The position numbers and the translations under genes were made by a program. Shown piece by piece: positions 12,977-59,700 of a stretch of 64,000 nucleotides of DNA (position 1 is the first letter of the stretch; the number at the start of each line of letters is the position of its first letter). Source of the stretch: Leucoraja ocellata (taxonomy: Eukaryota). Under the pieces are notes generated by a model, which saw only the letters and a list, made by a program, of their open reading frames with translations, was not told the origin of the DNA and made no database searches. Location of the stretch: positions 9,424,001 to 9,488,000 of the forward strand of contig JAWMAR010000011.1 of the NCBI GenBank assembly GCA_036785375.1. The letters are read 5' to 3'.

Positions 12977-15159
12977 TTACATTATGGTTTCATGAATATC
13001 TGTTAGACAATTAGTTCCCATGTCTAGACCATGTAATGTTGCTTTCTGGTCCAATGAAGTAACTTTGTTGAACATCTCTGGAGACAAGGAATATCTGTTT
13101 CCTGACTTCTCCTCAAACCAACAGTCCAGTGCCCTCTTTGCCTCAAAGTTTGCAATGGATGTTCCATTAACAGCAATAGTCAAAAGGTCACTGAGTTGGT
13201 CAAGGCTAAGTCGAGACCTGTTATTGTTACGTATCCGATAAAAGGCACCACGACTCTTCTCACAAGCTGCTGTTGAAGTCGGCAGAACAAGCAATAATTG
13301 AATGATTCTGTTTAGTATTGGGAATCTTTGTTTATACTTAAAGATGTGACAGCTCAACTCTTTGAAACCATTCTTGTTGTAGCATTCAGATTTTAACTCC
13401 CGCCATTCCTGCAATAAACTACCCCGAATGTCTCTGCCATCCAGACCAATTTCCTTTGTAAAAGATGGAATTATTTCAAAGTGCTTATATATGTGCATAA
13501 TTTCTTCTTCACCATGACTCATCAGGTTTTCCTCATTTTGGGGCCACGTCGTAATGTCAAACACTTGACATGCTCTAATAATGATACGGCTATTGCAATC
13601 CAGTCTTTGTGCTAGAATGAGTTGCGTTTTTTGGCAAATCTTCTCTCTTATTGAATTAAACTTGGCTTCTGCCACTCTTAGTTTTTGCAGAGGAACACCA
13701 TGAAAGTTTTCATGAAAGGTCTCCTCAAACTCTTGCAGATATTCTCCTGGTGATTCCACCAATCTACTTATCTCTTCAATGGCTTCTTCGATTTTTTCAT
13801 CCGCATGGGTAATGAGAAGGTGATCACCCTGGAAAATGAACGCCAACCGTGTAAGAACACCAATAATGTCTAACAAAAAATAGATAAGCTTAACTGACTG
13901 ATAGTCCATCAAGAATTGTAGCAGAGCCAGAGCAATGGCAGCAGCATCTGCTTTATGGGTCTGAGCACTAACATCCTTAAGATGAGCTATCACTTCCAAA
14001 TAATCCTTGATCAATGCACTCAAGATATTCTGCTCTCCAATGATCCACCTGACAGCACGAATGTCACCCAGGAATTCTGTCTCCTCGCAGAGTGTTGCAG
14101 CAGTGGCTCTTAATTCACACATGAGTTTGGGGGAATATCGATAGAAGCTCAGCAATTGTTTCAGGTTATTCTCTAGATCTTCCAAACAGGTTAGTTCTTT
14201 GCTACTAATAGCATCCAATACTTCCAAGTGAGGTCTATGTATCACACATGGGACAGAGAGTAGCCAAGGCAAAGCCTTTTTGATCTTCATGGCTAAACCT
14301 GCCCTTAGTCCTGTTGTCATATTGGCTCCATCGACCCCCAGACCAACAATTATTTTTTCTTCTTTCCATTTGATCCCTATGCCCCCAAGGGCCCTGTCCA
14401 GTGCCTGTGTATAACCGTCCACTGTTGCAGAGCTCAATTCCTGTAGGCACAATAACTCTGTAGCAGCTGGCCCCTCGTTGGTAACGTATTGAATGTAGAT
14501 GGCAACATTATCAGCAATCATGTCATCTGTTTGCCCATCCAAAATCACACTCATAAATGGGGACACCCTGAGCCTCTCAAGGAGATCCTCACGAAAAGAC
14601 ATTGCTATGTGGTGAATTAAAGTTTGACAGTCTCCCTCATTCAAGTATTGATCAACAATCTTTAAGTCACATTTTTTCAGAAGTTCAGCCAACGGTCTGA
14701 AATCTGAAAAATGCCTTCCTTCAAATGCTATGTGATAGGCTACATTAAATAACAGCGTCATGTTCCGGCACATCTCTTCTGTTTTTTCTGGATGCATCCT
14801 TAGTTTATAAAGTTGCAAACATTTCTTATGAAGATTACTCTGGGCGTGCAACTTGATAGTGTGGATTTTGAACTGCTTAGAGCCCAAGATGAAGGCTGAT
14901 GTCCTGGAGGACTGAACAGTGTACTGCCTACAAACATGGCACCACATTTCATTCAGAGTGGGTGAGTAGCGCAGGAACCAGAACTTTTTCAGCCACTCAT
15001 GTTTGAAGCGTCTGATCCTCCGGCCTGTACCAGTCGATATTTTCGATATTTCTTCTGTGGTGGCCAAAATCTCATTGGACATCGACTCGTCAGCTGAATC
15101 CATCTCCTGCTCACTTGTGTCATCCATGACAACTGGGACAGGAGTCTGTCCTTCTTGAG
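12977..15159 (-). CDS. PRDM11: PRDM11 terminal exon: TTF-type zinc finger + ZNF862-like domesticated hAT transposase domain
   Basis: Stop-free ORF. Acceptor TTCCTCACCCTAG|CT is phase 1, matching the 58891 donor. RRIRRFKHEWLKKFWFLRYSPTLNEMWCHVCRQY...HAQSNLHKKC and the downstream sequence are recognisable as the long PRDM11 isoform. hAT motifs LDGQTD, DGA, RW and TSTAACE are present. Confidence 0.95.
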
Positions 15160-18100
15160 CTAGGGTGAGGAAAATAAGAAAAAGATGTTTAGAAATTAAA
15201 AGTTCAACCTCTTTTTTCCTCAATCTAATCACTATCACGTATTTTGCAGTTGGATGGAATCAATCCAACCACTATCAATTAGACTAGATCTTGTGGAATA
15301 GCTTTTAATTTTTTCTTAAGCGGCAGGTCACTGAAAACACAAGTCAACAATCTTGTGGCGAGTGTCAAGCAAGCTGAACGATTTTGCATTTAACCGAGCA
15401 AGTACCAAAAATAAATTGCAAATTATAGCGGAAGAATTTCTTAAAATTGGATTTAAGCATAATTAAAGAGAGAAAAAGACATGGATTAAAGGAGAGATAA
15501 TAGAAATGATATATAAAACATTAAAATCATATTTAAAAAAAACCTACAAAATTATTTCTGTACACTGGGAATACTTAATATTTAGAACCAGGAATGTTGG
15601 CTGGCAGTAATTAACGTATATTATGCCGTTAAACAAGTACTTAGACTAGAATGGAGAATGCTTGACTTTCACGGAAATTATAGCAACTTCAAGCCATTCG
15701 CTGCAAGTCAATAAACCACAAAGTAAGGAGCCATTTCCAAAAAAGAGCCATTTTTTGGACAGTTGAGATTAACCACATATCTTCCACGCACCTGAAGTTA
15801 AAAATCCGACAGGAAAACCTCGGACATTATTGACAGAGAAAATTGTTATTTTCTTTTTATTATATAGTATTGTATTTATCTTTGCGGCTTTGAAATTATT
15901 CCAACCTAGAGAAATATTTTGAAGTTCTTAACCACTTTGAAGGTCAGAGTCTATCTGACATAACACATCTTTACAGTTTAGAGAAGACTTACATAAATTA
16001 AATAATCTAAACCAATTAAAAATAGTATGACATTGCGTGGAAGGTGTTAAAACCTATTCAGGTGATGATATTGAGACATCAGTAATTCTATGAAGATCAT
16101 TGTTCCATTGAACCATTACTTCAAGCAAAGCAACCTTTTTCTATTGCCACTGTGCAAAATGCTATGAGAATCCATTAAAAAAAACCTCAACAAAGTAAGA
16201 CAAGTTTAGCTACATACACAATCTACAGAAAACATATTCCAATGCAATTATTTATATGGTGCCTTTGACAGATGTCCCAAACTATTGGGTTATTACAAAT
16301 CCTAAATACACTTGACCATTAACACCAGGAGATTAAACTAATGGTCTGAGATTTAAAAAACGAAAATGACCATGTTAGTTTACTACAATCCATAATGAAT
16401 ATAAAATAAATGGTATTTTCTTCAATGGCAATTGGACACTCGACCCCATAGAATATGATTTGTCACGTTTCTGTTTTGTACATTTGTGCAATTTGATCAG
16501 TACAATGAAATAGTAAAATACAAAAAGTGCATAGAGAGAGAGAAACAATCACATCCATCTATTAAAACCCTTCTACCACAAAATCCCTTTTATTTAGTCA
16601 GAATGCATTCAATATTATGTTTTGCAGCTTAAAACCCATATGTTTAAGGCTCAAATACAAAAAAATGAATGGTATAATAATTAACATTGACATATTATTC
16701 ACACATCTAAGAGAAAACATACATACATGAGGCAGATACCATTTGTCAACTCACTAAATTCTTATATTTCTTAATTAGTGAACACCTGGTTATATCTTCC
16801 GCTTTAACATATCAACTCTACAAGCAATGTTGAAAACATCTCTAATATCCGTACTGACTGAACCAGTGTTATGTCAGGATACATTCCATCTAATAATTTA
16901 GCAATATGTTGATTATGATCTTGATTCATCTTTGTGCAAAGATTATTTTCTCCCTTGGGGGTGTGATGGACATGGTAAGTGGAAGAGATACAAAAGGTAA
17001 AGCAACCTCCATATAATGATCATACCAATTCAAAAAACACCAGCACCTAAACGGGATTAAAATATTATGGGAAGCTAGAGATAGCGGATGTCAGGAAGCC
17101 AACTAAGGAAGCAAAGCAGTTGCTAATCTAAACTGTTTTAAAAATATATTTATGTGAAAAAGTTTAATAGTTTCATTATGAGTATAAGAAAATAATAACA
17201 TCAACCAATGAAACACGCACAGACTACAATTTCCTACTGAAAGAAAAACGTATCACAAGTCATTGTACAAGTCTTAGCACTGTTGTAAAGGATTTAAAAT
17301 TGGAATACATGAGCCTTAATAATTTCATAGTAAGTCTTGCCTGTACCCATGAGTAAAATAAAGCAACTTTATTTCACTCAATATTTTTGAATAAGTCTAA
17401 AGGCATTTTGGATGAGCAATGCATCTCAGACAACTTAAAGATTTCTATAGATCGCTAAATGTGGCTGTCCAATTTCATATAAATAGAAGATAAATTAATA
17501 TTGCTGTTAATTTGACTGGCTTTTTTTTTTAAAGAAAATGGTATAACAATATATTTGTGAAAGCTTTGGAAGATGCCTATTATAACTTCATAAATTATAA
17601 ATATATGATAATTATCTCCCTTATCAGTGGTTCAAGAAGATAGCCGCTAAACACAATCTTTTATAATTGGATTAGATTTGTACAAATAATTTGGATGTAT
17701 CAAGATTGCTGAAACAGCAATGAAACAGAATACCATGTGATCCTACTGGGCAGTAGACTAACCACTGGCGCAAAACATTAGATGAATTTCTCAGTGTAAA
17801 CTCAAGGGGACTATGACTCCAAAGAAAACTACACAAAGTATCAACAAATCTTTTTAAAAACACTGTTTCTGCTGACTGGAAAGAGGGTGTCCACAAGGAA
17901 GAGCAAGCCCCAACAGTCACGGAAAAAGATTAGATTACGCATGTTTGCACACATTTGCCTCATAATATTTATCAATTGCATGTGTCGCCTCAAAAACCCA
18001 GTACATTTAAATTACTATGCATGTCTCTTAACAGGACCGACTGTAAAATCTTCACGGACTTACATTCCTGTGAAGTACCTTGTGCTGTTTTAATCTGTTA

Positions 18101-19199: not shown

Positions 19200-19513
19200 T
19201 TGTAATATAAAAGAGTCAAATTGCTCCTGGCAAGCTCTGACAATCAGAAATGTTACGTGGACAAATTAATCTGCTTTTAATTAGTGACATTGATTCAGAG
19301 ATAATATGGACCAAGACACCCGAGGTAACACTCTTGTCCTATGATCACTCACAAGCCCACGAGTCAATGCAGCATCGTGTCTAAAGGTACTGCAGTGGCA
19401 TGCCAACAGTATTGGGATTGGATTGTTATCTTACAATGTTGTGCTCAAGTCAATTGAATGGAAATTGAACACACAATCTTCAAAAATACTACTAACTGAG
19501 TCACAACTGACAC
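19200..19513 (-). mobile_element. Ancient DeuSINE-like (SacSINE1-type) remnant
   Basis: Minus-strand tRNA-like head GTGTCAGTTGTGACTCAGTTAGTAG...GTTCAA, followed by a decayed Deu-domain-like segment (TGGTCCATATTATCTCTGAATCAATGTCAC...CAGATTAA...). Recognised from memory of the consensus. Confidence 0.55.
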
Positions 19514-20433: not shown

Positions 20434-20629
20434 TGTTTAAGAAAGAACTGCAGATGCTTGGAAAATCGAAGGTAGACAAAAAAGCTAGAGAAACTCAGCG
20501 GGTGAGGCAGCATCTATGGAGAGAAGGAATAGGCGACGTTTCGGGTCAAGACCCTTCTTCTCCATCCGAATCGTCGCCTATTCCTTCACTCCATAGATGC
20601 TGCCTCACCTGCTGAGTTTCCCCAGCTCA
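20434..20629. mobile_element. Inverted Penelope-pLTR dimer
   Basis: AACTCAGCGGGTGAGGCAGCATCTATGGAG is mirrored by CTCCATAGATGCTGCCTCACCTGCTGAGTT; same family as 481-620. Confidence 0.8.
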
Positions 20630-20672
20630 GATAACAGTAATGTCTTATAGAATAATTCCAGTTATACCTTCT

Positions 20673-28442: not shown

Positions 28443-28448
28443 TTTATT
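28443..28448 (-). promoter_or_regulatory. Candidate polyadenylation signal for the BEN isoform
   Basis: Plus-strand TTTATT (AATAAA on minus) is the first canonical signal after the BEN exon stop. The background is AT-rich, so this is weak on its own. Confidence 0.4.
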
Positions 28449-28678: not shown

Positions 28679-28815
28679 CTATTTGGGAGCATCTTCAGGT
28701 TTGTCCCGGACTCCCAAAATGTAACGAATCTTTTTTCTGCTGTCACTGCATTTGCTGTTTACCATGGCATAAAATGCCTTGTCCGTCACGTATGCAAACT
28801 TCAGCTGGACATATG
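28679..28815 (-). CDS. BEN-domain exon 2 (C-terminal helices), putative terminal exon
   Basis: Strong acceptor TTCATTTTGTATTTTGCAG|CA (phase 1). Encodes AYVQLKFAYVTDKAFYAMVNSKCSDSRKKIRYILGVRDKPEDAPK*, including the BEN C-terminal N.KC...R(K/R) helix. AATAAA follows on the minus strand at 28443-28448. Confidence 0.8.
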
Positions 28816-29499
28816 CTGCAAAATACAAAATGAACAAACATTAGTTTGATGGATAATCTAAAATAGGATTAATTAAACAAGACACTTCAGTCTTAACATT
28901 GTATCGAGAGTGGATCCAGGCATCCCAAGAACTGGACTAAGTATGAACAAAGTTGTATTACATAATCTTCATATTTGATCTATCCAGGCATTATAGGGAA
29001 GCAAGGATGTCATAGATGGGGTTCAAATATATCCAAAGCTTCCACTGTACACTCACCACGATAACCTCCCAGAGTTTTTGGTTTGCAAAGTTAAAAAATA
29101 AAATATTAGTAAACCATTCAAACAATTCTGAAATAATACACGATTTCCTTGAAATTGGATTGAACCAACATTTATCATCTGAAACATCATTGTGTTGCAT
29201 ACTAGTGCCAAATTGGGTGCTCCTCAAAAAAACAAGTGTGTGATTATGTTAAATATGCAAAAAATGAGTTTCACAGTTCAACATAGCTCCTGACACTCAA
29301 CTGCACAGCAAATAGAGTAGGGCATGTTCTCTATGGCAGGAGAGCAATAACAAAGGCTGTACAGCTGAAACAGAGGAGAGGGAGGGGTAAAAGCTTTGTA
29401 CACGCCAGATCATGTCTTACTACCTTGATCGTTTTTTTGAGGAGATTATGAAGTTGATCGATGAGGGCAGGGCTATGGATGTTACCTACAAACATTTTT

Positions 29500-30138
29500 A
29501 GAAGGCATTGACAAAGTCCACTCCAAAACCAGCAACCCTATCCTAATGCACAGCACTGCTCTAGAGGAGGTAGCAACATTCACATACCTAGGCAGTGTTG
29601 TGGACATCACCGGAGGGGCAGAGGCAGACATAAAAAGTAGGATCAATAATGCTAGGGTGGAGTTTAACATGCTCAGGAAGATCTGGAGCTCAAAACACAT
29701 CTCAATCAACACCAAAATATGCATCTTTAACTCAAATGTGAAACAGGTGATGCTGTATGGATCAGAGACATGGAAAACAACAAAACACACTACAAACTGG
29801 CTGCAAACATTTATTAGCACCTGCCTTAGGAGAATACTCCACATCAGGGGAAAAGAACAAGTCAGGAGCCCATTGACTTACAAATTCGAAGGAGAAAATG
29901 GAGTTGGATTGGACACACCCCCAGAAACCTGCCACAAACATCACCCGGCAAGCCCTGAAATGGAACCCCCAAGGAAAAAGGAAAAGAGGTCGCTCCAGGA
30001 ACAGGTGATGAGGTGCCCAGACAGAAATGTCTGAGAGTGGACTCAACTGGGGAGATCTCGAAAGAACTGCCTACAACCAAGTGAGGTGGAGGACATTTGT
30101 CAATGGCTTATGCGCCCTAGAGGAGCAAAGGACTTATG
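29500..30138 (+). mobile_element. RTE-clade LINE 3' fragment inserted in a degraded CR1
   Basis: LEEVATFTYLGS...DIKSRINNAR..F..L.KIW...TKICIFNSNVK.V.LYGSETW; CR1 RT remnants on both flanks. Confidence 0.88.
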
Positions 30139-33894: not shown

Positions 33895-34117
33895 CTTTGA
33901 TTGCATCCAGAACATCAGGATCAAGAGCTGGTCTGGACATGTTGAACCCACTGTTTTTCCCTTTGCCTCGAGCACAATGTGAAGCCAGGTGTTGCTCAGT
34001 GTAAAAGTATTCCAGCAGAGCTCTTGTAAGTTTGCTTGGGTCACTCCTCTCAGCAGGACTGATGAAATTTAAATTAAGGCAACTGACTGATATCCCAGGG
34101 CCAGACTGTGCACCTTC
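33895..34117 (-). CDS. BEN-domain exon 1 (N-terminal two-thirds of the domain)
   Basis: Acceptor TTGTATTACAAG|GAA (phase 0; a nearby CAG|TCT is an in-frame alternative) and donor AAAG|GTACAC (phase 1). Encodes DPSKLTRALLEYFYTEQHLASHCARGKGKNSGFNMSRPALDPDVLDAIK, the typical BEN pattern (R..LL..FF..E.L.S...G...LDP..L.AI). Confidence 0.8.
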
Positions 34118-34639
34118 CTTGTAATACAAGCAATAAGAAAAATTATAGTATTTAAAAGCCAAAGCATATACTTATTCACAGAATTCTGAGTAATAGAGAG
34201 ATGCAATCTAATACAATTGCCCACCATCAACCACCCATTTACCCCGATCCTATAATAATCCCATGTTATGTTATAGCAATTAGAAAGTTTGAGCATTTTT
34301 ACCTCTATATGGAATCCCTTAATTATTTTGCCTACTATTTAAATCTAACTATTTGCGATCTGCTTTACACAGGTTTTTAAGTCCTTGTCCTCTTTCCTCC
34401 TTGAGCCACACCTTCCAAAAAAAGTATCATACAAAATATATGGTCCCATAGGCACCATGCATCCATCTCCTTCTTGGTACCTTGCTTAAAAGAACATTAT
34501 TCACATATGGCCCAAGAGGGCATGTTATACCAGGTTCTTCAATTAGCAGAACCTTTCTCTGCTTCCATCAACTTGCTTCAGCAATAAATGCCCAACAAAA
34601 TCATTAGTGTCCACTTGTGGTAATATACTGGGAGGTACA

Positions 34640-34913
34640 CAGTGTCCTCCATAATGTTTGGGACAAAGACCCATCATTTATTTATTTCCCTCTGACCACC
34701 ACAATTTGAGATTTGTAATAGAAAAACTTCTTTGGTGCTTTAAAAGTATGTTTGGGAGCATTGTCTTGTTGTAGAATAAAAATGTATAAAAATGTCCTTT
34801 AATAAAATCTGGCAATGTGCACTTTAACCACATGTGATCTTTTTCTATTGCACATCTCAAATTGTGGTGTACAGAGACAAATAATAAATTATGGGTCTTT
34901 GTCCCAAACATTA
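34640..34913. mobile_element. Internally deleted derivative of the Tc1 family at 61106-62766
   Basis: CAGTGTCCTCCATAATGTTTGGGACAAAGACCCATC...ATGGGTCTTTGTCCCAAACATTA; the right TIR tip is missing. Confidence 0.85.
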
Positions 34914-35324: not shown

Positions 35325-36450
35325 TAGAATCACGTAGCACCAAAATAATTCCTTTGACTCAACTCATCCATGCAGACCAAGATGTCCCATCTAAGCTAGT
35401 CCCATTTGCCAGAGCCTGACCCATATTACTCTAAACCTTTCCTATCCATGCACCTGTCCAAATGTTTTTTTAATCTGTTCAGTGCCACCCCCCGAGTATA
35501 CTCGGGTCATGGCCAATAGTGAAAAAAAAACTTGGCAGTAAACAGGTTCAATGTTGTTATTGTACCTGGCTCAGCTACTTCTCCTAATAATTCGTTCCAT
35601 ATATCAACTACCCTCTGTGTGGAAAAGTTGAACCTCAGGTCCCTATTAAATCCTTCCCATCTCATCTTAAATCTATCTTCTCTAGTGCTTGTTTCGACCT
35701 ACTATTATCCACATGACTTTATACACCTCTATAAGATCATGCTGCTGCCTAATACTTCAAGGAATAAAGTCCTAACCTGCCGAACCCCTTCTTATAACTC
35801 ATGCCCTTGAGTCCTGGCATCATGCTCGTAAATCTGCTCTGTACTCTTTCCAGATTAAAGGCACCTTTCTTAAATCAAGGCGACCAAAATTGATCATAAT
35901 ACTCCAAGAGCAGACTCACCAAAATCTTGTATAACTGTGAAATAATGTCCCAACTTCTACCCTCAATTCCGTGACTGATGAAGGCCAGCCTGCGAAAAGA
36001 CTTCTTCACCACCCTATCTGCCTGCAACATCACTTTCAGGGAACTTTACACTTGCTCTCACAGATACCTCTGCCTCTACAACACTCCCAAAGCTCTCTCG
36101 TTCACTGTGAATGCCCTGCCATGATTGGACTTCCCAAAATACAACAACTCACACTGATCTAAATTAACCATTCCTAGTCCAAGCTGATCAAGATTCCTTT
36201 GTAAATATTGATAACCATTTTCAGTCTACGCTCCAACCTCGTTTAGTGCCATCTGCAAATTTACATTTTCATCTAACGATAGATGACAAAGAGCAATGGG
36301 CCCAGCACTGATCCCCGAGGCACACCACTAGTTAAAGGTCTCGATTATGAAAAATAACTTTCCACCACCACTCTCTTTATTTCTTTATCCAATCATTAAG
36401 CAAATTCTGTATCCAGTTAGCTAGCTCTCCCTGGATCTCAAGCGATCTGA
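35325..36450 (-). mobile_element. Older degraded CR1-type LINE
   Basis: Minus-strand RT remnants (VPRGSVLGP, KFADG, EYY.QFWSP) and a 3' tail near 35325. Confidence 0.75.
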
Positions 36451-38703
36451 CATTGAGGTTAAGGAGCCATTAGGAGGTAATGACCATAATATGGTCAAGT
36501 TTAATCTACAATTGGAGAGGAAGAAGGGTAAATCAGAGATGTCAGTGTTACCGTTGAATAAAGGGGACTATGGAGACATCAGGGAGGAGCTGGCCAAAGT
36601 TGACTGGAAAGATACCCTAGGAGGGATGACAGTGGAACTACAATGGCAGGTATTTCTGGGAATAATACAGAAGGTGCAGGGTCAGTTCATTCCGAAGAGG
36701 AAGAAAGATTCCAAGGGGAGTAAGGGGCGACCGTGAATGATAAGGGACGTCAGGGACAGTATAAAAATAAAAGAAAAGGAGTACAAGGTAGCAAAGATGA
36801 GAGGGAAGCAAGAGGATTGGGTAATGTTTAAAGAACAACAGAAAATAACTAAAAGGGCAATACGGGGAGAAAAGATGAGGTACGAAGGTAAGCTAGCCAA
36901 GAATATAAAGCAGGATAGTAGCTTCTTTAGGTATGTAAAGAGGAAAAAATTAGTTAAGACCAAAGTTGGACTCTTGAAGACTGAAAAAGGTGAATTTATT
37001 ATGTGGAACACGGAAATGGTAGATGAGTTGAACAGGTACATTGGATCCGTCTTCACTAAGGAGGACACAAACAATCTATACTAGTGGCCAGAGGATCTGG
37101 GGTGACGGAGGAACTGAAGGAAATCCACATTAGGCAGGAAATGGTGTTGGGTAGACTGATGGGACTGAAGGCTGAAAAATCCCCAGGGCCTGATGGTCTG
37201 CATCCCAGGGTACTTAAGGAAGTGGCTCTAGAAATCGTGAATGCATTGGTGATAATTTTCCAATGTTCTATAGATTCAGGATCAGTTCCTGCGGATTGGA
37301 GGGTAGCTAATATTATCCCACTTTTTAAGAAAGGAGAGAGAGAGAAAACAGGGATTTATAGACGAGTTAGCCTGACATCGGCGGTGGGGAAGATGCTGGA
37401 GTCAATTATAAAAGATGAAATAGTGGCACATTTGGATAGCAGTAACAGGATCGGTCCGAGTCAGCATGGATTTACAAAGGGGAAATCATGCTTGACTAAT
37501 CTTCTGGAATTTTTTGAGGGTGTAACTAGGAACATGGACAACGGAGAGCCAGTGGATGTAGTGTATCTGGACTTTCAGAAAGCATTTGATAAGGTCCCAC
37601 ATAGGAGATTAGTGGGCAAAATTAGGGCACATGGTATTGGGGATAGAGTACTGACATGGATAGAAAATTGGTTGGCAGACAGGAAACAAAGAGTAGGGAT
37701 TAACGGGTTCAGAATGGCAGGCAGTGGCTAGTGGGGTGCCGCAAGGCTCGGTGCTGGGACTGCAGCTATTTACAATATACATCAATGATTTAGATGAAGG
37801 GATTCAAAGCAACTAGTAAATTTGCAGATGACACAAACCTGGGTGGCAGTTTGAACTGTGAGGAGGATGCTATGAGAATGCAGGGTGACTTCGACAGGTT
37901 GGGTGAGTGGGCAGATGCAGTTTAATGTGGATAAATGTGAGGTTATCCACTTTGGTAGCAAAAACAGGAAGGCAGATTACTATCTAAATGGTGTCAAGTT
38001 GGGAAAAGGGGAAGTACAACGGGATCTGGGGGTCCCTGTTCATCAGTCAATGAAAGTAAGCATGCAGGTACTGTAGGCAGTGAAGAAAGCGAATGGCATG
38101 TTGGCCTTTATAACAAGAGGTGTTGAGTAAAGGAGCAAAGAGGTCCTTCTGCAGTTGTACAGGGTGCTAGTGAGATCACACCTGGAGTATTGTGTGCAGT
38201 TTTGGTCCCCTAATTTGAGGAAGGACATTCTTGCTATTGAGGGAGTGTAGTGTAGATTTACAAGGTTCATTCCTGGGATGGCAGGACTGTCATATGCTGC
38301 GAGAATGGAGCGGCTGGGCTTGTATACTCTGGAGTTTAGAAGGATGAGACATATAAGATTATTAAGGGTTTGACATGCTAGAGGCAGGAAACATGATCCC
38401 GTTGTTGGGGGAGTCCAAAACCAGGGGCCACAGTTTAAGAATGAGGGGTAAGCCATTTAGAACGGAGACAAGGAAACACATTTTCTCACAGAGAGTTGTG
38501 AGTCTATGGAATTCTCTGCCTCAGAGAGCGGTGGAGGCGGGTTCTCTGGATACTTTCAAGAGAGAGCTAGATAGGGCTCTTAAAGATAGCGGAGTCAGGG
38601 ATATGGGGAGAAGGCAGGAACTGGGTACTGATTGGGGATGATTGGGAATGGCGGTGTTGGCTCGAAGGGCCAAATGGCCTACTGCTGCATCTATTGTCTA
38701 TTG
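36451..38703 (+). mobile_element. 5'-truncated CR1 LINE, ORF2 broken by stops and frameshifts
   Basis: KSPGPDGLHPRVLKE, QHGFTKGKSCLTNLLEFF, VDVVYLDFQKAFDKVPH, KFADD; 3' tail CTATTGTCTATTG. Confidence 0.97.
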
Positions 38704-39321: not shown

Positions 39322-40691
39322 CGATGGCTGATTTTGCCGCATACGTTTACGAGCAGCTACTGCTTTCAGATTACGACAAATATCTTTGAAAGTTGAAGGC
39401 TGCAACCTGTGTTGGAGATGTGGTGGGTCCTGCATTGAAGGGCATTGGTACTGTGGAAGCTGATGCTGTGGTTGTGATGGTGGCGGTGGTGCTGGTAGTG
39501 GCAATGGCTGTAGATTTTCTTGCTGCCATAAAAATGTCTTCTGGTTAGGTTGTGGTTGCTGGGATTGTGGCAATTGCTGTGGGGATGACTGCAGATTTTG
39601 TGATGATTGGTGAGGTGATTGTTGCTGGAGATGTGGTAACTGCTCTGCCGGCTGCTGCTGGAGATGTGGTAACTGTGGTGCCGGCTGCTGCTGGCGATGT
39701 GGTAACTGCTGTACCGGCTGCTGCTGGAGATGTGGTAACTGTTGCACCGGCTGTTGCTGGAGATGTGGTAACTGTGGTGCCGGCTGCTGCTGGCGATGTG
39801 GTAACTGCTGTACCGGCTGCTGCTGGAGATGTGGTAACTGTTGCACCGGCTGTTGCTGGAGATGTGGTAACTGTGGTGCCGGCTGCTGCTGGCGATGTGG
39901 TAACTGCTGTGGTGGCTGTTGCTGCAGATGTGGTAACTGTTCCACCGGCTGCTGCTGGAGATGTGGTAACTGCTGTGCCGGCTGCTGCTGGAGATGTGGT
40001 AACTGCTGTGCCGGCTGCTGCTGGAGATGTGGTAACTGCTGTGGTGGCTGTTGCTGCAGATGTGGTAACTGTTCCACCGGCTGCTGCTGGAGATGTGGTA
40101 ACTGCTGTGGTGACTGTTGCTGCAGATGTAGCAACTTTTGTGCCGGCTGCTGCTGGAGATGTGGTAACTGTTGTGCCGGCTGCTGCTGGAGATGTGGTAA
40201 CTGCTGTGGTGACTGTTTATGGAGATGCGGTAATTGGTTTAGATCTAATGGATGATGTTCAACCACTAAATGTTGCTGGCACTGACTGTTATTTTGTGGC
40301 ACCTCAAGGAATTGTTCTTTGAGTTTTATCTGCTGATATTGGTGTTTTGATTGCTCAGGGTAAAATTGTTCATCCACAATTTCATCACATTGTTCAACCT
40401 TAAGTTCTTGCTCAGAACACTTTTGTTGTGTCAGTTTAGGTTCTGGGCCCTGCTCAGTCACTGCTGGTTGTTGTTCTTCTGCATGTTGGGTTTCAAAAGG
40501 TTGTGGAAGGTGTAGCAGTGTTGGTGGATGATGAGGGTAGTAGTGTTGAACCTTATCCTTCACAGGTTGTTGTTTTTGGTCTGGTAGCACAGGTATCAAA
40601 GTGCTTATTTCTTCTGCTTCTGATTGCAAGAGGTGGAATCTGTAGTACTGGACAAGATTTTCCAGAAAGGCAAATGTAGCCATAGAAGGAA
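39322..40691 (-). CDS. Putative alternative PRDM11 exon, Gln/Pro/His-rich with an 11-aa tandem repeat
   Basis: Branch-like GCTAAC, T9 tract and AAG|TT CCT TCT ATG acceptor (phase 1). 1370 bp open. Donor TCG|GTAAGA (phase 0). Non-repeat coding-like flanks on both sides, including basic AARKRMR. Confidence 0.75.
39613..40239 (-). repeat. Coding minisatellite, 19 x 33 bp (QQLPHLQQQP[A/V/P])
   Basis: 19 in-frame units counted from the translation; plus-strand unit is approximately GGAGATGTGGTAACTGCTGTGCCGGCTGCTGCT. Confidence 0.97.
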
Positions 40692-48309: not shown

Positions 48310-48900
48310 TCTAACCTACCTTGGGTCTTAATCTTCTGGATCAGCCCACCATGAGGAACTTTAACAAATACCTTGTCCAGGTAGACAACATCAACCGCCA
48401 TACCCTCATTGATCACTTTCATCACCTCCTCAATCCTCAATTAAGTTAGTTAGATAGGATCTGCCAAAGACAAAGCCACGTTGACTGTCCCTAATTTTCT
48501 AATTCTCTTCCAAATGCGAGAAAATCCTATACCAAAGAATCCTTTTCAATAGCTCTTCTACCATGGATGAGAGGCTCAACGGCCCACAATTTCCTGGATT
48601 ATCTCTACGTCCTTTCTTAAACAAAGCAACAACATTGGCTACTCTCCAGTCCTGAGGGACGTCGCCTGCGCTAGAAAAGATCCAAAGTTTTTTGTTGAGG
48701 CTCCTGCAATCTACACCTGCCTCTCTCAATATCTTGGGATAGATTTCATCAGGCCCTAGGGATTTATTCACTTTAATACTTTCAAACAGCCCACCCTTCT
48801 TGATCTCAAACTGCCCTAGCATATTAATATAATCCAGATTGACCTTACTATCCTCCATATCCTTGTCCTTGGTGAATACAGCTGCAAAGTGCTCGTTTAG
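48310..48900 (-). mobile_element. CR1 ORF2 internal fragment
   Basis: LNEHFAAVFTK...KSLGPDEIYPKILRE...VPQDWRVANVVALFKKG..DNPGN. Confidence 0.88.
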
Positions 48901-48907
48901 TACTATG

Positions 48908-49300
48908 CCAACAAGTTTGCAGATGACACCACTGTAGTGGGCTGTATCTTGAACAATGATGAGATGGAGTACAGGAAGGAAATAGAAAGCTTGGTAGCGT
49001 GGCTTCAAAACAAGAACCTTTCTCTCAATGTCAGCAAACTAATGGAGCTAGTTATTAACTTCAGGAAGTGAGGTAGAGTACATTCCCAAATCAGCAATAA
49101 TGGTGTCAAAATGGAAATGGTCGTGCGCTTCAAGTTCCTACGCATAATTATCACCACATATTTGTCCTGGACCAACCGCATCAAAGCTCTGGCCAAAATG
49201 CCTCCTCTTCCTCAAGAGACTAACAAAGTTTGGCATATATCCAATTAATTTTACTAGCTTCTACAGATGTACCATACAAATCACACTGTCATCTTGCATT
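48908..49300 (+). mobile_element. Rex1/Babar-like LINE RT fragment
   Basis: KFADDTTVVGCILNNDEMEYRKEIESLVAW...FKFL...SFYRCTI. Confidence 0.75.
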
Positions 49301-52086: not shown

Positions 52087-54770
52087 ATCCAGCTATGTGA
52101 GGAAGAATATACTTGCAATTGGGGAGCAATGTGGGACTGGTCCCTTGAGAAGAGATAAAGCCATTGCACCTATTTGCTGAGTGTAGACAAGGTAATCTCT
52201 TTGAAACATACAACATTTTTATGGAGTTTGACAGGGTAGATGGGGGGTGGGGTGCGGGGTATTGCTTCCCCTGTCAAGAATGTCAAGATCCGAGGGTTAC
52301 AGTCTTTAAAAGTAAGGAGTGGACCATTGAGTACGAAAATGTCTATACGTTTATTTAACCAGGGTAAGGAATCTTTGGAATTCTCCATGCAGGAAGGCTA
52401 TGGAGTCTTCAAGACAAGTTGATTGATTTTCAGATATTAAAGAAATCAAGGGCAATGGGGTTCGTACAAGTAAATGGCGTTCCAGTAGAGGATCAGACAA
52501 TAGACAATAGACAATAGGTGCAGGAGTAGGCCATTCGGCCCTTCGAGCCAGCACCGCCATTTAATGTGATCATGGCTGATCATTCCCAATCAGTACCCCG
52601 TTCCTGCCTTCTCCCCATATCCCTTGACTCCGCTATTTTTAAGAACTGGAGGTGGTATGAAGAATCAAATAACCTGGATTAAATAAAGTCTACTTTATTT
52701 TATGATCACCAACAACCAAGGATTAAAATTCAATTTCAGTTGTGAATGGTTTACATTTCATTTACTTCACACAGAGGGTGATGAACATGTAGAACACATT
52801 GTTAGCTACAGTGGAAACAGGTAGAGCTGGAACATTGAAACAAACTGTAGTTTTAATGGAAGAAAACTGCAAGGGTTAAAGGAAGAGAATAAAGTGACAT
52901 GTTTTTGTTTAAACTTGGTTACAGTCATAGATTCCAATTGTGATTTCCAGACCCAAAGACTCCAATGTTCTTAAGTGCATGTTGTTTCAATTTACAATCG
53001 TAAAAGAGCCATTTTACCACAGAAAAAGTATCTTAAAATTGTAAGTAGAATTTATAGTTGCAACCACCAAGTCCAAAAATCAGCAAAATGACAATAAGAA
53101 ACTACGTGACGTGGGCCATTCACGATATACAACCTCAACAGAACAGGAGTTTTTGTGTAGTTTTGAAATCTATCCTGCAGACATAATAAATGACATGTAT
53201 TATCAGTCTCACTCTGTATCCTCTGTGTAACAATTTCTTCAGATAAAATGTCAATTGAAATTTGTGATTGCTTACAGCGTCTTTTCAAAAATTACGACGA
53301 TACATAACTAAGCAAATAAAGATAAAAATATAAAGTTCTTACCTTTATCTGTTATTGCCATGTCCTCTTTTTGATAAGATCTCAGATATTGAACTGCAGT
53401 GATCAAAATCTCTGTTCCTCTGGTGTATGACAGCACTTGCAGATTATTATTTTCATTTTTTGATGTGCTCAGAATTCAGCAGTAGCATTGTGAAAATACA
53501 TCAGTAAACTCAAAAGATCGTACATGAACGGTTCCTCAAATATGTCAGATTATTAGCAATCGTGTGTCTTCTGGTTCACCAACATCAAAACCCAAATAAT
53601 TTCTTCAAAAATGTGCCAATATTGCTTATATACTTTACTGATTTAGCAATCACAGAAACAAGAAAAATAATATAGCTCAGTTACCAAAAGGCTTAACAGT
53701 TAATAATAATTAGGAGAGGAATCAAAGAAAACTTTATTAGTTTCATCATAAAACAGCTTGACAACATGAGAGCACCAAAATCTTACTTTCCTTACAACAA
53801 GCTATTTTACTCATTTAACTTATGGACTCACAAAATTGGATGATCATATATGTTTCTCTGGAAAGCCATATAATCATACATCTAATGCTAGATTAAAAAT
53901 AAAATATTCTTCATTTTTAGTTTAGACACCCCAGTTATATATATTGCAACTTATTTTGTTGCAAGGAAACACGTCAGAAATGCATATACTAATGAGTCCA
54001 TATATTTTTTTGGTAAGAGTTGTTTTGTTGGGTATTTTAGCTAGTATATACTAGTAGAGAAAGCAATAGATTTAAACAAGTAGATTAATAGATCCATAAG
54101 CATAGCACTCCGCAGGTTTATTCAAAAAATAAGTTCTAAAAGAATGTCTCAAAATATGCCCCAAAAAAACTATACAAAAGTGATGTCAACCATTTGATGG
54201 ATACAACATATCAGGGATCCTCCACAACACAGATCAACCTCCAAGTGATATATCAGCTTGTTAATTTAGCAAAGCAAGTTAAAAATGTGTCACTTTTATA
54301 ATTTATAGAGATGCCACCCATGCCTGATTTTGTTTTGCAATACACATACTGAATTATATGGCAACCTGAATAAACTATTAAGGAGCACTGATGCATTCAA
54401 ATGAGAAAATATTGCACACTAACTAATCTACACCTTGCCAGGCATCATCCATAGCTTCTTTCCTCACCTAGTCCAACCAAGAAAGATGAAAAGCTCCAAA
54501 ATGTCTGTCGCTACAATGAGCAATATTAGACATTTCTTATTAAATTAGAAATTACAAACATTTACAATTCAGTGCTCTGTACTTCGATATTACAATGAAC
54601 ACTGATACAAGGAATGAATTAATGTTGCAATCTAGTTACTTGCCTTTTGTACAACAATAATTTCATGACCCAAATGATTCTGTGTTTTTGAATGAATTAA
54701 TAAAATTTCCTGGTGAATAGGGGCTACTAGTTTATCCTACATTGTTGAGGTACGCTATCTAGACCTAGGA

Positions 54771-56321
54771 ATTCTGGTTCAATCAATAAGCATGGGCTCA
54801 GGAGATGGCCACGTGTATTTAGAACATTTTATGGAGGGTTATGGATCAGGCACTCACTATTAATCTTGGGCAGATTTTGAAAAGTATTGAGACCTCAAAA
54901 AAAATTGTTGGAGAATGGGGAGGTTAGAGAAATGTTGTTGGCACTGGTGTGAGAGGGGAGGGGAAGAGGCAAGATGAAGAGGCTGCAGATCAGAGATGTC
55001 CAAGAGATCAGAGAGTATTGTGTTCAGTGTACAATCAGAGTACATTGTGAGGGAAATGGGACAAAAATGTAGAGACATATTTCACTTACTTGGAGGGATG
55101 TTAATCCAATGCTGTGCTGGTACTACCACATTTTTCCAGTTATGCCCAATGAGAGGTGTGTTGCATGAAAAATTAAATCTAGAATAGAATCTAGAATACT
55201 CTCTAGAATTTAGGAGATTGAGAGGGGATCTTATAGAAACTTACAAAATTCTAAGGGGTTGGACAGGCTAGATGCAGGAAGATTGCTCCCGATGTTGGGG
55301 AAGTCCAGGACAAGGGGTCACAGCTTAAGGATAAGGGGGAAATCCTTTAAAACCGAGATGAGAAGAACTTTTTTCACACAGAGAGTGGTGAATCTCTGGA
55401 ACTCTCTGCCGCAGAGGGTAGTCGAGGCCAGTTCATTGGCTATATTTAAGAGGGAGTTAGATGTGGCCCTTGTGGCTAAGGGGATCAGAGGGTATGGAGA
55501 GAAGGCAGGTACGGGATACTGAGTTGGATGATCAGCCATGATCATATTGAATGGCGGTGCAGGCTCGAAGGGCCGAATGGCCTACTCCTGCACCTAATTT
55601 CTATGTTTCTATGTTTCTAAATCATGCAGAATTAACTTTTAAGATCGAAAGAGTGATTTACGATAGGTAGTGCTTGGTTAAATTTTCAAAGTGACACAAA
55701 ATAATCCAGAACATCTTGTTATTCTATTGCACCCAAGGGTAGACCATTTCCAATTGCATAAAACTAAAAAATAATGTTATGCAATTGAATTTAATTGATG
55801 GAATATCGCATACTAAACTATTTAGAACTACAGTAAACAAAAATGGACCTTTCAATCAGATTCAAATTCAGATTCAGATTCAATTTTAATTGTCATTGTC
55901 AGTGTACAGTACAGAGACAACGAAATGCATTTAGCATCTCCCTTGAAGAGCGATTCTGGTTCAATCAATAAGCATGGGCTCAGGAGATGGCCACGTGTAT
56001 TTAGAACATTTTATGGAGGGTTATGGATCAGGCACTCACTATTAATCTTGGGCAGATTTTGAAAAGTATTGAGACCTCAAGAAAAATTGTTGGAGAATGG
56101 GGAGGTTAGAGAAATGTTGTTGGCACTGGTGTGAGAGGGGAGGGGAAGAGGCAAGATGAAGAGGCTGCAGATCAGAGATGTCCAAGAGATCAGAGAGTAT
56201 TGTGTTCAGTGTACAATCAGAGTACATTGTGAGGGAAATGGGACAAAAATGTAGAGACATATTTCACTTACTTGGAGGGATGTTAATCCAATGCTGTGCT
56301 GGTACTACCACATTTTTCCAG
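54771..56321 (+). repeat. 369-bp direct duplication (54771-55139 and 55953-56321)
   Basis: Constant offset of 1182 bp; one visible mismatch (AAAAAAAA vs AAGAAAAA). Confidence 0.95.
55195..55619 (+). mobile_element. Young CR1 LINE 3' end
   Basis: RGHSLRIRGKSFKTEMRRTFFTQRVVNLWNSLPQ; tail (TTTCTATG)n. Confidence 0.95.
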
Positions 56322-58890
56322 CATTTAGGTCAGTCATTCTGTCAGCATATCCACTATTCCCTTTTCCTTCTTACGTTTATTTATCCTTTCATTAAAAACA
56401 TCATGTTCTGCATTCTTTCCATAAATGCATCCAAACACTCATAACTCTCAAGATAAAGAAATTGCCTCTGAATTCTCCATTTAATTTCTTGCCCTATAAG
56501 GACGGCAGTCAGTATAGTTGTACTTTATAAATAGACTGTTTCCCTTTGTGTCTCTTTTATAAAGGTCTTTCATAATTTTAAACTTCTCTATTAGGTAATC
56601 CTTCAAACAATCCTTTCAAGCAAGAAAATCAATGTAAAATATTTGAGTTGGTTTTGTATCAATAAAACAGGATAAAATTGTTATGAAAAATTAAATTTGC
56701 AGAGATAAAGTTCTTGAAGTAGGATCTCCTCACAAGTAAGACATTATACAAAACAGCAGATTACACACATTTCACTGTTAAAAAATTAACTATGTATATT
56801 TAAAGAGAAACCCCTAATTGTCTGAAGATAACATAAATGTACTTCTTAATAGCACACACAAGGTTTGAGCTTCAAAATTAAACCACCTTCTTTGCTCTCT
56901 TGGTTGGTGATTCATAAACACAGAATGGAATAGTAATAGATTTTACTCAGTTTAAAAAAACAAGGTCTTTTAAAATTGGGTTTCACAAGTAGTTGGACAT
57001 ATCTATAAAATAAAGTCTATTGCTAATGTCTAAGATTACTGGACAGCATGGTAAAATTTCACCTTCTGCAGATTAAACAAGGGCGATGCGTCATCACCCC
57101 GAGTAAATAGTCTGGTGACCCAAACTATTCACGAAATGTAACAGCTCCATCTGCTGACAAAAAACACCTTACACCTTAGAACTGCATGCCACTGTTCTAA
57201 AAAATTTTATTTTGGTAATTTTTATAAACAAATCATCCAGTAATAAACAAAATTTAACATACAATTTAATGATTTCAATCTAAAAAGAGGTGATTTGCTG
57301 TCAAATTATGATATTAAAAACTAAACTGAAAATGAAACTCTTTTCTTAGAAAACAGAACACAAGTAACAGAGATATAACATACTAGAGTTAGATAATTTG
57401 GAAGTGACTGTCACATAATCCAAGGTCATCAGATCAGATAGAATCTATTCTTCTGAATCATCACACAATATGTTGTAACGTTGATGTTTTATGTACAAGG
57501 GTCTCGACCCAAAATTTCTATTCCTTTTCTCCAGAGATGCTGCCTGACCCGCTCAGTTATTCCAGCATTTTGTGTCTATCTTAGGTTTTCTTATTGTCAC
57601 CTTCACCACATTTATAATTAATAATAATAAATTTATAAATAATAAAAAAATCAATTATTGAACTGAATAATTTGATTAATTATTTGATTTCAAATGCTTT
57701 CATAATCAAGCGCCTTATTGATTATAAACCAATTTCAATAAAGAACTACTGTAAATAAACCTAAAATAAACATCATTCATAGTTGGCTGAGTTTAGCTAT
57801 TGGTCTTCACACATCAAATAAAAGTAACACCCTATTAACTTAAACAAAGGAGAATCAAACAAAACTTAATTTACAGCAGTGCGCATTAGAAAGGAAAACA
57901 ACTGAGGATTTTGAAATCTGCTAAATGAATATTGTAAATTGTAAACAGTTTGTAGCGTTTTAGGACTGACCATCCAACGGTATATTTCTTCCAAAAACAT
58001 TCAATCCCACTTCTCCCATTTGCAATCACTCCTTTGTGAGGATTTTGTTGCCATTCCTCTTCCCTCCCAGCTTTTGAACTCACATTAACTGTGAAAGGGC
58101 CATTTGCTTCCCCCCCCCCCCCCCTCAATTACTCCCTCTAACGACCAAAACTGATAAAACAAAGATATATCCTTTAAAAACCGTCCAAGTAATGTTGCTC
58201 CAAAGTCTAGTCGCAGGAAAGATGCGGATATTGAAGAACTGGCACAAATCCTTAGCTTCCACAAAATTATTGAATTTAGAATAGTAGAGTACAGTGAATA
58301 CAACTGTAACGAATATATACACATGACAAAGTAATGTGATATTTGCAGAATTATTTAATTTCCATTGAGTACCATAACTACATATGCAGTGGTATTAATA
58401 AAGCATTTGCTCTGAATAAAGAAGAATGATACACATGTTAGAATGATACATGTTTAGATTGGCCTGTAGAATGTCAGCAGCCATTCTCAAACCTAAAATT
58501 TAATCTTTATCTTTAAGATTATCTGTGAAGGAAGCAGTGATTTGAAATACAGCCTATGCAGGCCAACAAACAGGATACTGTCTCTTTCTAATTTAGATTA
58601 GAATTACCCAATGCCCACTTTTTCTTTGTCATTCCAACTCTTCTAAATGGGTCACCTCCCCCTTTACAAGAGTCATAGATATGCAACACCAATGTTATTC
58701 CGTGGATCAATCAGCAAGCCAGCATTGACCACTATAAGCAACAGCATAATTTTATTTTATAACTTCACATATAATATGGAAACCATAACTAATAGGTTGG
58801 TTAAACTGCCAGCCACAGCTTAAAAACCGATCAATAAAAAGCAAAAAATAAATATTAATTTTCTAGGGCACATCATATGTGTAGACTTAC

Positions 58891-59700
58891 CTGGCAAGTT
58901 AGACTTCAGTCGATCTAGTTCCTCTTGAAGCTGTCGAATTTTCTCTTGTAGTATTACACAATTTGGACAGTACGATGTGGGCTGGCTTTTTGGAAGATCT
59001 TCCTCAGCCACAGCCCTGTGCTGTCCACCTGAATTCTCTGGTGGCAAAGCACTGCTGTTTTCTTCAGTATTTTGAAGGAACCCAGAGTCCATTGTTTGGA
59101 GAAAACCAGTATTTAAATGCTTTTCATTTACTTTTTGTTGGGATCTGAAGTCTCCTTCACCTCTGGTGCCTGATTGAGATAGAATACTTTGCTGTGAAGA
59201 AGTTCCTGGCCTGTTGAATGTGTCTCCTTCGTGATGCCTGAGCCTTTGCCGAACAGGAAATTGATTGTCCATTGATGATGGATATTTTGTTTGTGCTGTA
59301 CTCAATTTATTGATTTCATGTTCCTGTCCACTGCGGGCTACAAACTGAGACCTTTGAGGTACAGGAGATGAGGTAGTTAGAAGATTGCTAGTTTGCTTCA
59401 TAGAACATACATGTTCAAATGGACCCCGACCAGAAATTGGACAACCAAGCTTTTCTCTTGGACTATCAACTGGCAAATCATGGATGCTTTTAAACAATTG
59501 TTCCAGCTTCTTCTTTTTAGGGCTTGGGCTGCAGTCGCCATCTTTGTTGTCACGTTTTCCACCCTTGTTGGGATTGGTATTTTCCAGTCTCTCAAAATCA
59601 TCCTTATTTAGAATCCCTGGTATTCTGGAGGTCCCTGGATCTCCAGTGGGTTTTTCAGTGGAATGTCTTCCTAGGCTAGCCTTCTTGCACTTTGCTGCCG
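58891..59700 (-). CDS. PRDM11: PRDM11 internal coding exon (post-PR-domain region with NLS-like PKKKK and CxxC + coiled coil)
   Basis: Acceptor CATTTCAG|CG at 59701/59700 and donor CCAG|GTAAGT at 58891/58890. The exon is 810 bp, open and phase 1-1. It encodes SPSPKKKKLE and PTSYCPNCVILQEKIRQLQEELDRLKS, matching the recalled vertebrate PRDM11 motif TSFCPNC...VRELQAELDMLKS. Confidence 0.9.

Follow-up and report, generated by a model that had tools for sequence, protein, structure and literature searches.

PRDM11 of the skate Leucoraja ocellata: a PR-domain gene with a choice of two conserved in-frame endings, BEN and hAT

Overview

The 64,000-nucleotide stretch of Leucoraja ocellata DNA analysed here (the window) carries PRDM11 on its minus strand—a paralog of PRDM9 without the C2H2 array. 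We interpret the locus, with good confidence, as one PR-domain gene with two conserved, in-frame alternative endings, either a BEN domain or a domesticated hAT transposase. The evidence lies in splice sites, frames, domains, conservation, and the occurrence of both routes in public gene models. Two phase-1 donors, at the last PR exon and at a coiled-coil exon (exon A), would combine with two phase-1 acceptors in a combinatorial 3' splicing scheme. If a weak proximal acceptor is used, exons B, C, and D follow, with a stop and poly(A) site, and the product would be PR-(coiled coil)-linker-BEN; if that acceptor is passed over for a strong distal one, the product would be PR-(coiled coil)-zinc finger-hAT transposase. 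As judged from its sequence, one PRDM11 gene thus probably makes two differently targeted regulators, with each ending directing the same PR domain to different DNA.

Locus Identity and the PR Domain

The PR/SET exons lie outside the window, about 7.5–25 kb past its right end (upstream, given the minus strand); they map to the same contig, where the matched stretches are 83–100% identical. The last PR exon likewise ends in phase 1. Orthology to PRDM11 is marked by the PR/SET domain, which in a close relative's isoform scores 305 bits to 3RAY versus 142 to PRDM9, and by a second feature: a CxxC-coiled-coil exon together with a hAT-derived last exon like that of other gnathostomes. Pfam scans of PRDM11 models returned no KRAB, SSXRD, or C2H2 array. 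A near-identical second copy of the locus exists in the genome, in a 375-kb duplicate that may be either a second haplotype or a true duplication.

When aligned to PRDM9 chains, the PRDM9-type catalytic tyrosine triad (Y276, Y341, Y357) is incomplete, with IYFR against IFYR; the remaining two catalytic motifs of the PRDM11 PR domain retain their tyrosine. Since PRDM11 has a phenylalanine at what we take, from residue-to-motif mapping, to be the position of the second catalytic tyrosine of PRDM9, its PR domain probably serves as a scaffold or has altered chemistry.

According to an earlier study, the duplication of PRDM9 that gave rise to PRDM11 predates the gnathostome ancestor, and jawless fish have only pre-duplication PRDM9/11 genes and no PRDM11 (10.1101/093096). 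The map of endings over cyclostomes that the first-pass annotation had suggested therefore cannot be drawn for PRDM11.

The Shared Donor and a Skippable Coiled Coil

Exon A (58891..59700; like all gene features below, on the minus strand) is an 810-nt phase 1-1 cassette exon encoding a basic KKKK motif, a long linker, and, at its end, a CxxC motif with a coiled coil predicted from the sequence (58892..58972). It ends at the shared phase-1 donor, 58891 (CAG/GTAAGT), which had the top score when 3390 GT sites of the minus strand were ranked with a rough weight matrix of approximate frequencies. The coiled-coil segment has a mean identity of 98% across 11 elasmobranch isoforms, and is 82% identical to chimaera and 64–68% to lungfish and platypus. 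Contigs from a related skate align at 58891–59701 with unaligned flanks in two of four runs.

Exon A is skipped in models P0002, P0013, and others: the last PR exon joins exon B directly in P0002, and joins the hAT exon directly in P0013 and many more, including models from birds, turtles, marsupials, and monotremes. The coiled coil is therefore optional, and isoforms without it exist. The N-terminus that both endings were initially proposed to share is common in its PR domain only, and exon B, which had been assigned exon A as its upstream partner, is reached both from there and from the last PR exon, which tells in part against the initial proposal. A complex prediction for the BEN-isoform and hAT-isoform coiled coils with zinc scored 0.24 (mark 0.34) with alignments unused, and counts neither way for the mixed dimers that the coiled coil might allow.

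The hAT Ending

The distal terminal exon, exon H (12977..15159), is intronless and derived from a hAT transposase. It encodes a C17orf113/TTF-type zinc finger (Pfam zf-C17orf113, ~14977–14804) and a hAT dimerisation domain (~13339–13175), both above the Pfam cut-off. Its acceptor at 15159 (CTCACCCTAG/C) is strong, being equalled or outscored by 25 of 3880 AG sites, and the hAT route keeps an open frame of 996 aa, counted from exon A, to the stop at 12977. A 3' UTR of some 5 kb may follow (7979..12976), as weakly suggested by a contig that extends 7181 nt beyond the donor.

Identity of the hAT exon is 90–95% across elasmobranchs and 70% to platypus, and the hAT ending is 70–81% identical in chimaera, lungfish, and amniotes. 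In the PRDM11 proteins compared, among which ray-finned fish are not represented, the sequences indicate a gnathostome-wide ending, which would date back to the jawed-vertebrate ancestor. The intronless reading frame is spliced to a host domain and matches the genome only at the locus and its near-identical duplicate; no dispersed hAT copies were present among 103 genome candidates scored. These features identify exon H as a domesticated hAT transposase fusion at a single locus, under apparent purifying selection. Among seven sequences, the first D and the E of what we take to be the DDE triad are invariant (7/7), while the second D is replaced by N in chimaera; by the same presumed assignment of motifs, the Cys of CxxH is retained in 2/7 and the Arg of RW is Lys in 3/7. 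No solved hAT structure matched the exon H protein in a structure-match search.

The BEN Ending

Exons B, C, and D fell below exon-finder thresholds and were located with proteins of relatives. Exon B (39322..40691; 1370 nt, phase 1 to 0) encodes a conserved first helix, a Q/P-rich linker, and a conserved basic end helix. Within it, a 33-bp minisatellite of 18.5 copies (39623..40233) encodes an 11-residue Q/P-rich repeat; its length varies among species, and the second locus copy has an exon B reading frame with 44 fewer codons. Exon C (33895..34117; phase 0 to 1) encodes the first two thirds of the BEN domain, and exon D (28679..28815), the proximal terminal exon, encodes the last BEN helix and the stop, with AATAAA at 28448 and 28231. 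The acceptor of exon B at 40691 (TTTTTTTTTAAG/T) is weak, being equalled or outscored by 635 of 3880 AG sites. The route A+B+C+D is an open frame of 845 aa, counted from exon A, to a TAG at 28681–28679. At exon C, a tandem acceptor (AAG/GAAG/) produces a +4 frameshift variant.

The BEN domain (PF10523), a predicted DNA-binding domain, scores 25.3 bits in exon C against a cut-off of 23.2, and 31.4 bits in a relative's full isoform. The junction peptide LP/VPS is identical in 11/11 aligned BEN isoforms, and identity over the 24 residues that open exon B is 93%. Among elasmobranchs, mean identity is higher in BEN exons C+D (96.7%) than in the PR domain (92.8%) or the exon B linker (70%). Matching phase by itself is expected at about a third of AG sites. 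The agreement between 58891 and 40691 goes beyond chance because LP/VPS is invariant, the start of exon B is 93% identical, and exons C+D are 97% identical. BEN alone passed the cut-off when Pfam was run on 95 minus-strand ORFs (94 of the 106 listed with at least 58 aa, those above 16800, plus exon D), and neither a Myb/SANT nor any other additional ending was found among them.

Splice Choice and Transcript Evidence

The first-pass annotation proposed that the donor at 58891 fits both acceptors, 40691 (BEN) and 15159 (hAT); this stands, as both continue the frame and both are used in gene models. Junctions other than 58891 to 15159 are on record, with the sole PR-containing model seen for three species taking the BEN route. 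Mutual exclusivity of the two outputs, as also proposed, applies to the domains, with no model seen to contain both, but not to the exons, as exon B can be joined, out of frame, to the hAT exon as well. This variant and the exon B to exon C+4 variant recur in two and three species, respectively; because such frameshifted variants recur across species, the gene models appear to rest on observed junctions. We infer that the choice is made by the weak proximal acceptor, with proximal polyadenylation, competing with the strong distal acceptor.

Contigs from a related skate indirectly place both junctions in RNA. One matches exon A exactly and runs on for 518 nt, about the length expected if it enters exon B and breaks off at the first repeated 31-mer there (offset 475–505); another, from a second run of the same species, also matches exon A exactly and continues for 7181 nt without repeated 31-mers, which fits exon H and its UTR—in both cases, the fit is judged by the length of the continuation rather than by junction-spanning letters. 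The two runs are labelled 'probably DNA' by program; we take them as RNA only because contig ends coincide with exon boundaries and the introns on either side have little or no coverage. In the sole certain RNA run (X24, raw), no read lay on exon A in the 6% of the run that was read, and run X5 covers exon A in part only. Which route is recovered differs between the two samples and among several annotations, at most a hint of a choice regulated by tissue or stage.

A short form, proposed earlier as a third ending, would read from exon A into the intron for 23 residues (58820..58890) to a TAA at 58822–58820, with a possible 3' UTR covered by contigs within 58344..58890 and an ATTAAA at 58359–58354. 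Contigs there have a depth of 4–6 versus 41–45 on exon A. We think it unlikely that the short form ranks as a third regulated ending, equal to the other two, and acts as a functional dominant-negative coiled-coil protein. The read-through contigs do reach about a tenth of exon depth, one of them stopping 10 nt after an ATTAAA, with the intron bare further in; bird models of 464–465 aa (marked partial) stop at the matching place; and vertebrate PRDM11 is described in reviews as a PR protein without zinc fingers (PMC4760075). However, in a relative with 98% exon identity, both the stop, which reads lysine, and the nearer AATAAA are altered (one contig, depth 6.2), no short elasmobranch model was among the proteins fetched, in searches not aimed at that length, and the contigs resemble what retained-intron pre-mRNA would give. 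The short form looks like low-level intronic read-through with an unconserved tail rather than a third module.

Distribution and Origin of the BEN Ending

In public gene models, which are automatic annotation, the BEN ending occurs in at least 19 of the 20 elasmobranch species seen, a PR-linked hAT ending in at least 17, and both in at least 16; these counts are lower bounds, as they draw on 120 of 729 matches and, for one cluster, on 15 of its 19 members. Three species have a PR-BEN model and no PR-hAT model among those seen. Among 36 candidates of 96–2000 aa, none was a BEN ending from the PRDM11 of a chimaera or bony vertebrate, and a search for short, chimaera-like BEN fragments of 40–130 aa gave no candidate. 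In the gene models seen, the BEN ending is thus so far restricted to sharks and rays. Its absence from five Callorhinchus models is weak evidence, because annotation can miss the BEN form: the skate Amblyraja has none among the models seen, though the closely related Leucoraja has intact exons.

We consider it somewhat probable that the BEN module was added within the last PRDM11 intron on the elasmobranch or chondrichthyan stem, and give a little under even chances to an ancestral BEN ending that was lost elsewhere. In 1.84 billion representatives, the best outside match to the BEN domain is a Mytilus HTH_psq-BEN protein (46% identity, E 5e-17), followed by a separate vertebrate coiled-coil-BEN gene (32–36%). 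A tree in which 4 of 14 inner branches are supported and long branches meet places PRDM11-BEN with Mytilus at a support of only 86/86, and the AU test does not reject grouping PRDM11-BEN with the vertebrate coiled-coil-BEN gene instead (p-AU 0.085). An Atlas search with the BEN part returned arthropod BEN clusters only (≤0.90), and one with the coiled coil and exon B helix gave no usable match.

A fuller version of the ancestral reading, which we hold to be possible though the less probable course, starts from the fusion of a PR domain with a CxxC-coiled-coil-BEN gene, followed by downstream capture of the hAT transposase as an alternative last exon and, in bony vertebrates and perhaps chimaeras, by later loss of BEN with the coiled coil kept. 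The BEN module has its own introns, as expected for a host gene, and its exons sit upstream of the transposase exon; several BEN relatives share the coiled coil-then-BEN layout, two invertebrate-like ones with cysteines just before the coiled coil; the stem branch of BEN is long, with 1.24 changes per column; and fusions begin as splice variants whose parental transcript tends to vanish with age, according to Cosby et al. (10.1101/2020.05.07.082677). This history nevertheless requires two losses (holocephalans and bony vertebrates) against one gain on current annotation; the coiled coil and exon B helix show no significant similarity to the vertebrate coiled-coil-BEN gene (hhalign probability 1.4%); and the coiled-coil exon is skippable and paired with hAT throughout gnathostomes. 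Far less credible is that the BEN exons form a separate gene nested in the PRDM11 intron, with PR-BEN models being annotation fusions or rare read-through. Exon B has a weak acceptor and, in this skate, an ATG three codons past it, and a BEN-alone GenBank model exists (P0191); yet 6 of 11 aligned species have Val or Leu in place of that methionine whereas the VPS upstream of it never varies, PR-BEN models occur in the species counted above, including the three with no PR-hAT model seen, and the 518-nt contig continuation fits an exon A–exon B joint.

A broader scenario is speculative and, in our estimate, rather improbable: PRDM11 would have swapped the PRDM9 zinc-finger array for foreign DNA-binding modules held as splice-selectable last exons—hAT in the jawed-vertebrate ancestor, in sharks and rays a BEN module of invertebrate-like origin that may have moved horizontally, and in human perhaps a Harbinger Myb-like domain—and a tissue- or stage-dependent splice switch in elasmobranchs, with mixed dimers through the coiled coil, would address two unrelated sets of sites. 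The Myb-like domain is called putative in human PRDM11 in one report (PMC9392472); it was present in no PRDM11 protein examined here.

Known Systems and Significance

Other vertebrate PRDM11 (3RAY, the human PR domain, and amniote PR-hAT isoforms) has an orthologous PR domain (E 7e-90), the skippable coiled-coil exon, and a hAT last exon that is 70% identical overall and 95–97% in the zinc-finger region; unlike it, the skate gene has three exons for a BEN ending within its last intron (43.7 kb), an extra ending that only shark and ray models show. PRDM9 is the PR-domain parent (E 1e-40), and PRDM11 differs from it in having no KRAB, SSXRD, or C2H2 array in the models scanned. BEND6, NACC1, Insensitive, and an unnamed gene of shark, coelacanth, amphibians, turtles, and birds share the order of coiled coil, linker, and C-terminal BEN, and the solved domains of BEND6 (E 0.005–0.013) and NACC1 are weak matches; these single-BEN proteins have no PR/SET attached, and the nearest vertebrate BEN is less similar (32–36%) than that of the mussel (46%).

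The hAT ending resembles SETMAR, CSB-PGBD3, and KRABINER—a transposase reading frame in its own exon, an acceptor just upstream, a host chromatin domain, and a coexisting other ending—as these are presented in 10.1101/2020.05.07.082677. The PRDM11 fusion is far older than the cases in which both transcripts usually coexist, and its rival ending is itself a foreign-looking DNA-binding module. PRDM does not occur in the main text of that paper, whose supplementary gene table may list PRDM11. PRDM11 is usually called a PRDM without zinc fingers (PMC4760075), its enzymatic activity is tabulated as unknown (PMC12249604), and it is a reported lymphoma suppressor (PMC7177584). A literature search that reached neither most subscription papers nor bioRxiv supplements found no description of a PR/SET-BEN protein, and nothing on point for PRDM11 with BEN, a transposase fusion, hAT evolution in sharks, or ZNF862.

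PRDM11 here has two conserved C-terminal candidates for DNA binding, and we found no printed account of the PR/SET-BEN domain combination, which is 97% conserved in sharks and rays. The locus offers a direct test of the model in which transposase fusions arise as splice variants and in time supplant the other ending. The hAT isoform, common to amniotes, is likely a DNA-binding form worth studying in mammals.

Identity of the Locus and Its Exons

The minus strand of the window carries the 3' part of skate PRDM11. Residues 20–300 encoded by exon H, the hAT-transposase-derived last exon, match Amblyraja PRDM11 models at 100% identity and Rhinoraja at 99%; against the solved human PRDM11 PR domain the isoform of a close relative reaches 305 bits, versus 142 against PRDM9. 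The PR/SET exons named in the first-pass annotation lie outside the window—five map 7.5–25 kb past its right end. A second copy of the PRDM11 3' region sits on the same contig, about 374.6 kb before the window, with 96–98.7% identity, introns included, and all six splice sites checked identical; it is either a retained haplotype or a recent duplication.

All exons lie on the minus strand. The donor at the end of exon A (59700–58891) is in phase 1 and, in a rough scan of 3390 GT sites, scores highest. The BEN ending comprises exon B (40691–39322), exon C (34117–33895), and exon D (28815–28679, including the stop), placed with relatives' proteins; it is entered through a weak acceptor at 40691, matched or beaten by 635 of 3880 sites, and exon H (15159–12977) has a strong one (25 of 3880). 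From exon A, the reading frame stays open for 845 residues through the BEN exons and for 996 through exon H; reading past the donor adds 23 residues before a stop. Pfam confirms BEN, a C17orf113-type zinc finger, and a hAT dimerisation domain; across 95 ORFs scanned, intronic and exonic, no other domain passes the cut-off. Exon B also contains a coding 33-bp minisatellite (39623–40233), whose length differs between species, and probably also between this locus and its second copy, with the frame kept.

The window also holds several repeats. A 369-bp direct repeat (54771–55139 and 55953–56321, 99.7% identity), with about 810 bp between its copies that include a dispersed LINE-like piece, is a young insertion, a local duplication, or an assembly echo. 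Inverted arms of about 235 bp (61103–61332 and 62537–62769, 93% identity, 1.2 kb apart; related pieces at 34639–34913) are probably a non-autonomous DNA transposon. Intronic ORFs at 29465–30034 (+), 36425–37731 (+), 1238–1842, and 48499–49038 resemble reverse-transcriptase fragments of what we take to be LINE-type elements.

Use of the BEN and hAT Endings

The alternative BEN and hAT endings are real and conserved. Of the 20 elasmobranch species seen, 19 have a public automatic gene model joining PR to BEN, 17 one joining PR to hAT, and 16 have both; these counts are lower bounds, taken from among the matches listed (120 of 729; some clusters in part). Among the models listed, the rays Pristis, Hypanus, and Hemitrygon have the BEN route only, the hAT exon being annotated as a gene of its own, and Amblyraja has the hAT route only.

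The alignment of 11 isoforms points to strong selection on the BEN route: mean identity is 96.7% in exons C and D and 93–94% in the helices at the two ends of exon B, compared with 92.8% in the PR region and 70% in the exon B linker. The BEN exons might instead form a separate nested gene starting at a Met near the start of exon B; the same isoforms argue against this, since 6 of the 11 have Val or Leu in place of that Met, whereas the junction LP|VPS is invariant.

The coiled-coil N-terminus, previously thought common to all endings, is optional. Exon A is a phase 1-1 cassette and the last PR exon likewise ends in phase 1; this exon is joined directly to exon B in protein model P0002, and directly to exon H in numerous models spanning sharks, chimaera, chicken, turtle, and Tasmanian devil. 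Because exon A can be skipped in frame, two donors meet two acceptors. Gene models of sharks, chimaera, birds, turtles, marsupials, and monotremes contain the direct PR-to-hAT splice, and the option of skipping the coiled-coil exon may therefore date back to the origin of jawed vertebrates; the coiled-coil motif occurs in 14 of 99 bony-vertebrate hAT matches. The two endings exclude each other as domains but not as exons: exon B is also spliced to exon H, out of frame, in two species, and, in three, to a site lying 4 nt inside exon C, both variants giving an early stop in the window's sequence as well.

RNA Evidence

Four sequencing runs were aligned to 57700–60300. In two, from one related species, a contig matches 58891–59701 at 98% and depth 41–45, with other sequence on both sides; the exon-exact edges and bare upstream intron overrule the automatic call of these runs as DNA, and we read them as spliced RNA. 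One exon A contig continues 518 nt past the donor; this fits exon B up to its first repeated 31-mer, at offsets 475–505, a point at which an assembler would break. The other continues 7181 nt, consistent with exon H followed by a UTR of 5 kb, over which the window has no repeated 31-mers; its end falls 9 nt from an ATTAAA, although 7 kb holds 14 such signals and the UTR a dispersed repeat. Both readings are indirect, drawn from the lengths of the continuations and not from the junction letters, which fall among 37 loose ends outside the alignment. An 840-bp repeat (4114–4926 and 11638–12476, 92.5% identity) has its second copy in this putative hAT-form 3' UTR. The single certain RNA run has no read on exon A, and the fourth covers it partly.

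The short form, proposed as a third ending, fares less well. Contigs at depth 4–6 extend to 58344, 10 nt past an ATTAAA, and no further, lending it some support; its tail is not conserved, however, since the same relative's stop codon and nearer AATAAA are altered (one contig).

Origin of the Two Endings

The PRDM9/PRDM11 duplication predates the gnathostome ancestor, and jawless fish hold only pre-duplication genes, according to Baker et al. (10.1101/093096), which limits the BEN question to jawed vertebrates. The hAT ending occurs in elasmobranchs, chimaera, lungfish, and amniotes, and is therefore as old as jawed vertebrates. Across three protein searches the BEN ending was found in elasmobranchs only, and five Callorhinchus models have the hAT ending alone. 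Outside this group, the closest BEN is that of a mussel protein (46%), followed by a separate coiled-coil-BEN gene (32–36%) of shark, coelacanth, amphibians, turtles, and birds. That unnamed gene (models P0168, P0174, P0175, P0176, P0179, and P0182) is well conserved in sevengill shark, coelacanth, axolotl, Xenopus, turtles, and birds, with no mammalian member among the matches listed.

We lean towards a single gain of the BEN ending, being more parsimonious than two losses. An ancestral BEN ending lost elsewhere would nonetheless agree with the introns of the BEN module, with the coiled coil-then-BEN layout common among its relatives, and with a tree allowing kinship with the vertebrate coiled-coil-BEN gene (p-AU 0.085). 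According to Cosby et al. (10.1101/2020.05.07.082677), parental endings tend to vanish in old fusions, and bony vertebrates would show such a loss; moreover, at least one skate has a BEN form that annotation overlooked, and the models found include no ray-finned-fish PRDM11.

Mechanism and Implications

PRDM11 is already known, as are BEN domains and the capture of transposases through alternative splicing, and both isoforms are in public automatic annotation under uninformative names; in open-access full text we found no description of a PR/SET-BEN protein or of a BEN/hAT choice. Human PRDM11 is listed as a putative Harbinger Myb-like domain carrier by Etchegaray et al. (PMC9392472); this domain was seen in none of the proteins examined here.

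The anatomy suggests competition between a weak proximal acceptor, which leads to a separate terminal exon with poly(A) signals, and a strong acceptor 25.5 kb downstream. Where exon B is recognised, C and D would follow and the transcript would end at D; where it is not used, the donor would reach exon H.

The BEN domain weakly matches the solved BEND6 and NACC1 domains. The zinc-finger region of exon H is 95–100% identical across gnathostomes; in what we presume to be the hAT catalytic motifs, two acidic residues are invariant (7 of 7), chimaera has Asn at a third acidic position, and bony vertebrates have lost the cysteine of CxxH. With the finger kept and the catalytic motifs partly lost, DNA binding is more likely than cutting to be the conserved job of the hAT exon. 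In both human and shark PRDM11, Phe occupies one of the three PR-domain positions where PRDM9 has a catalytic Tyr. Mixed dimers among isoforms containing exon A are plausible, and either ending would place a candidate DNA-binding module on the same PR domain.
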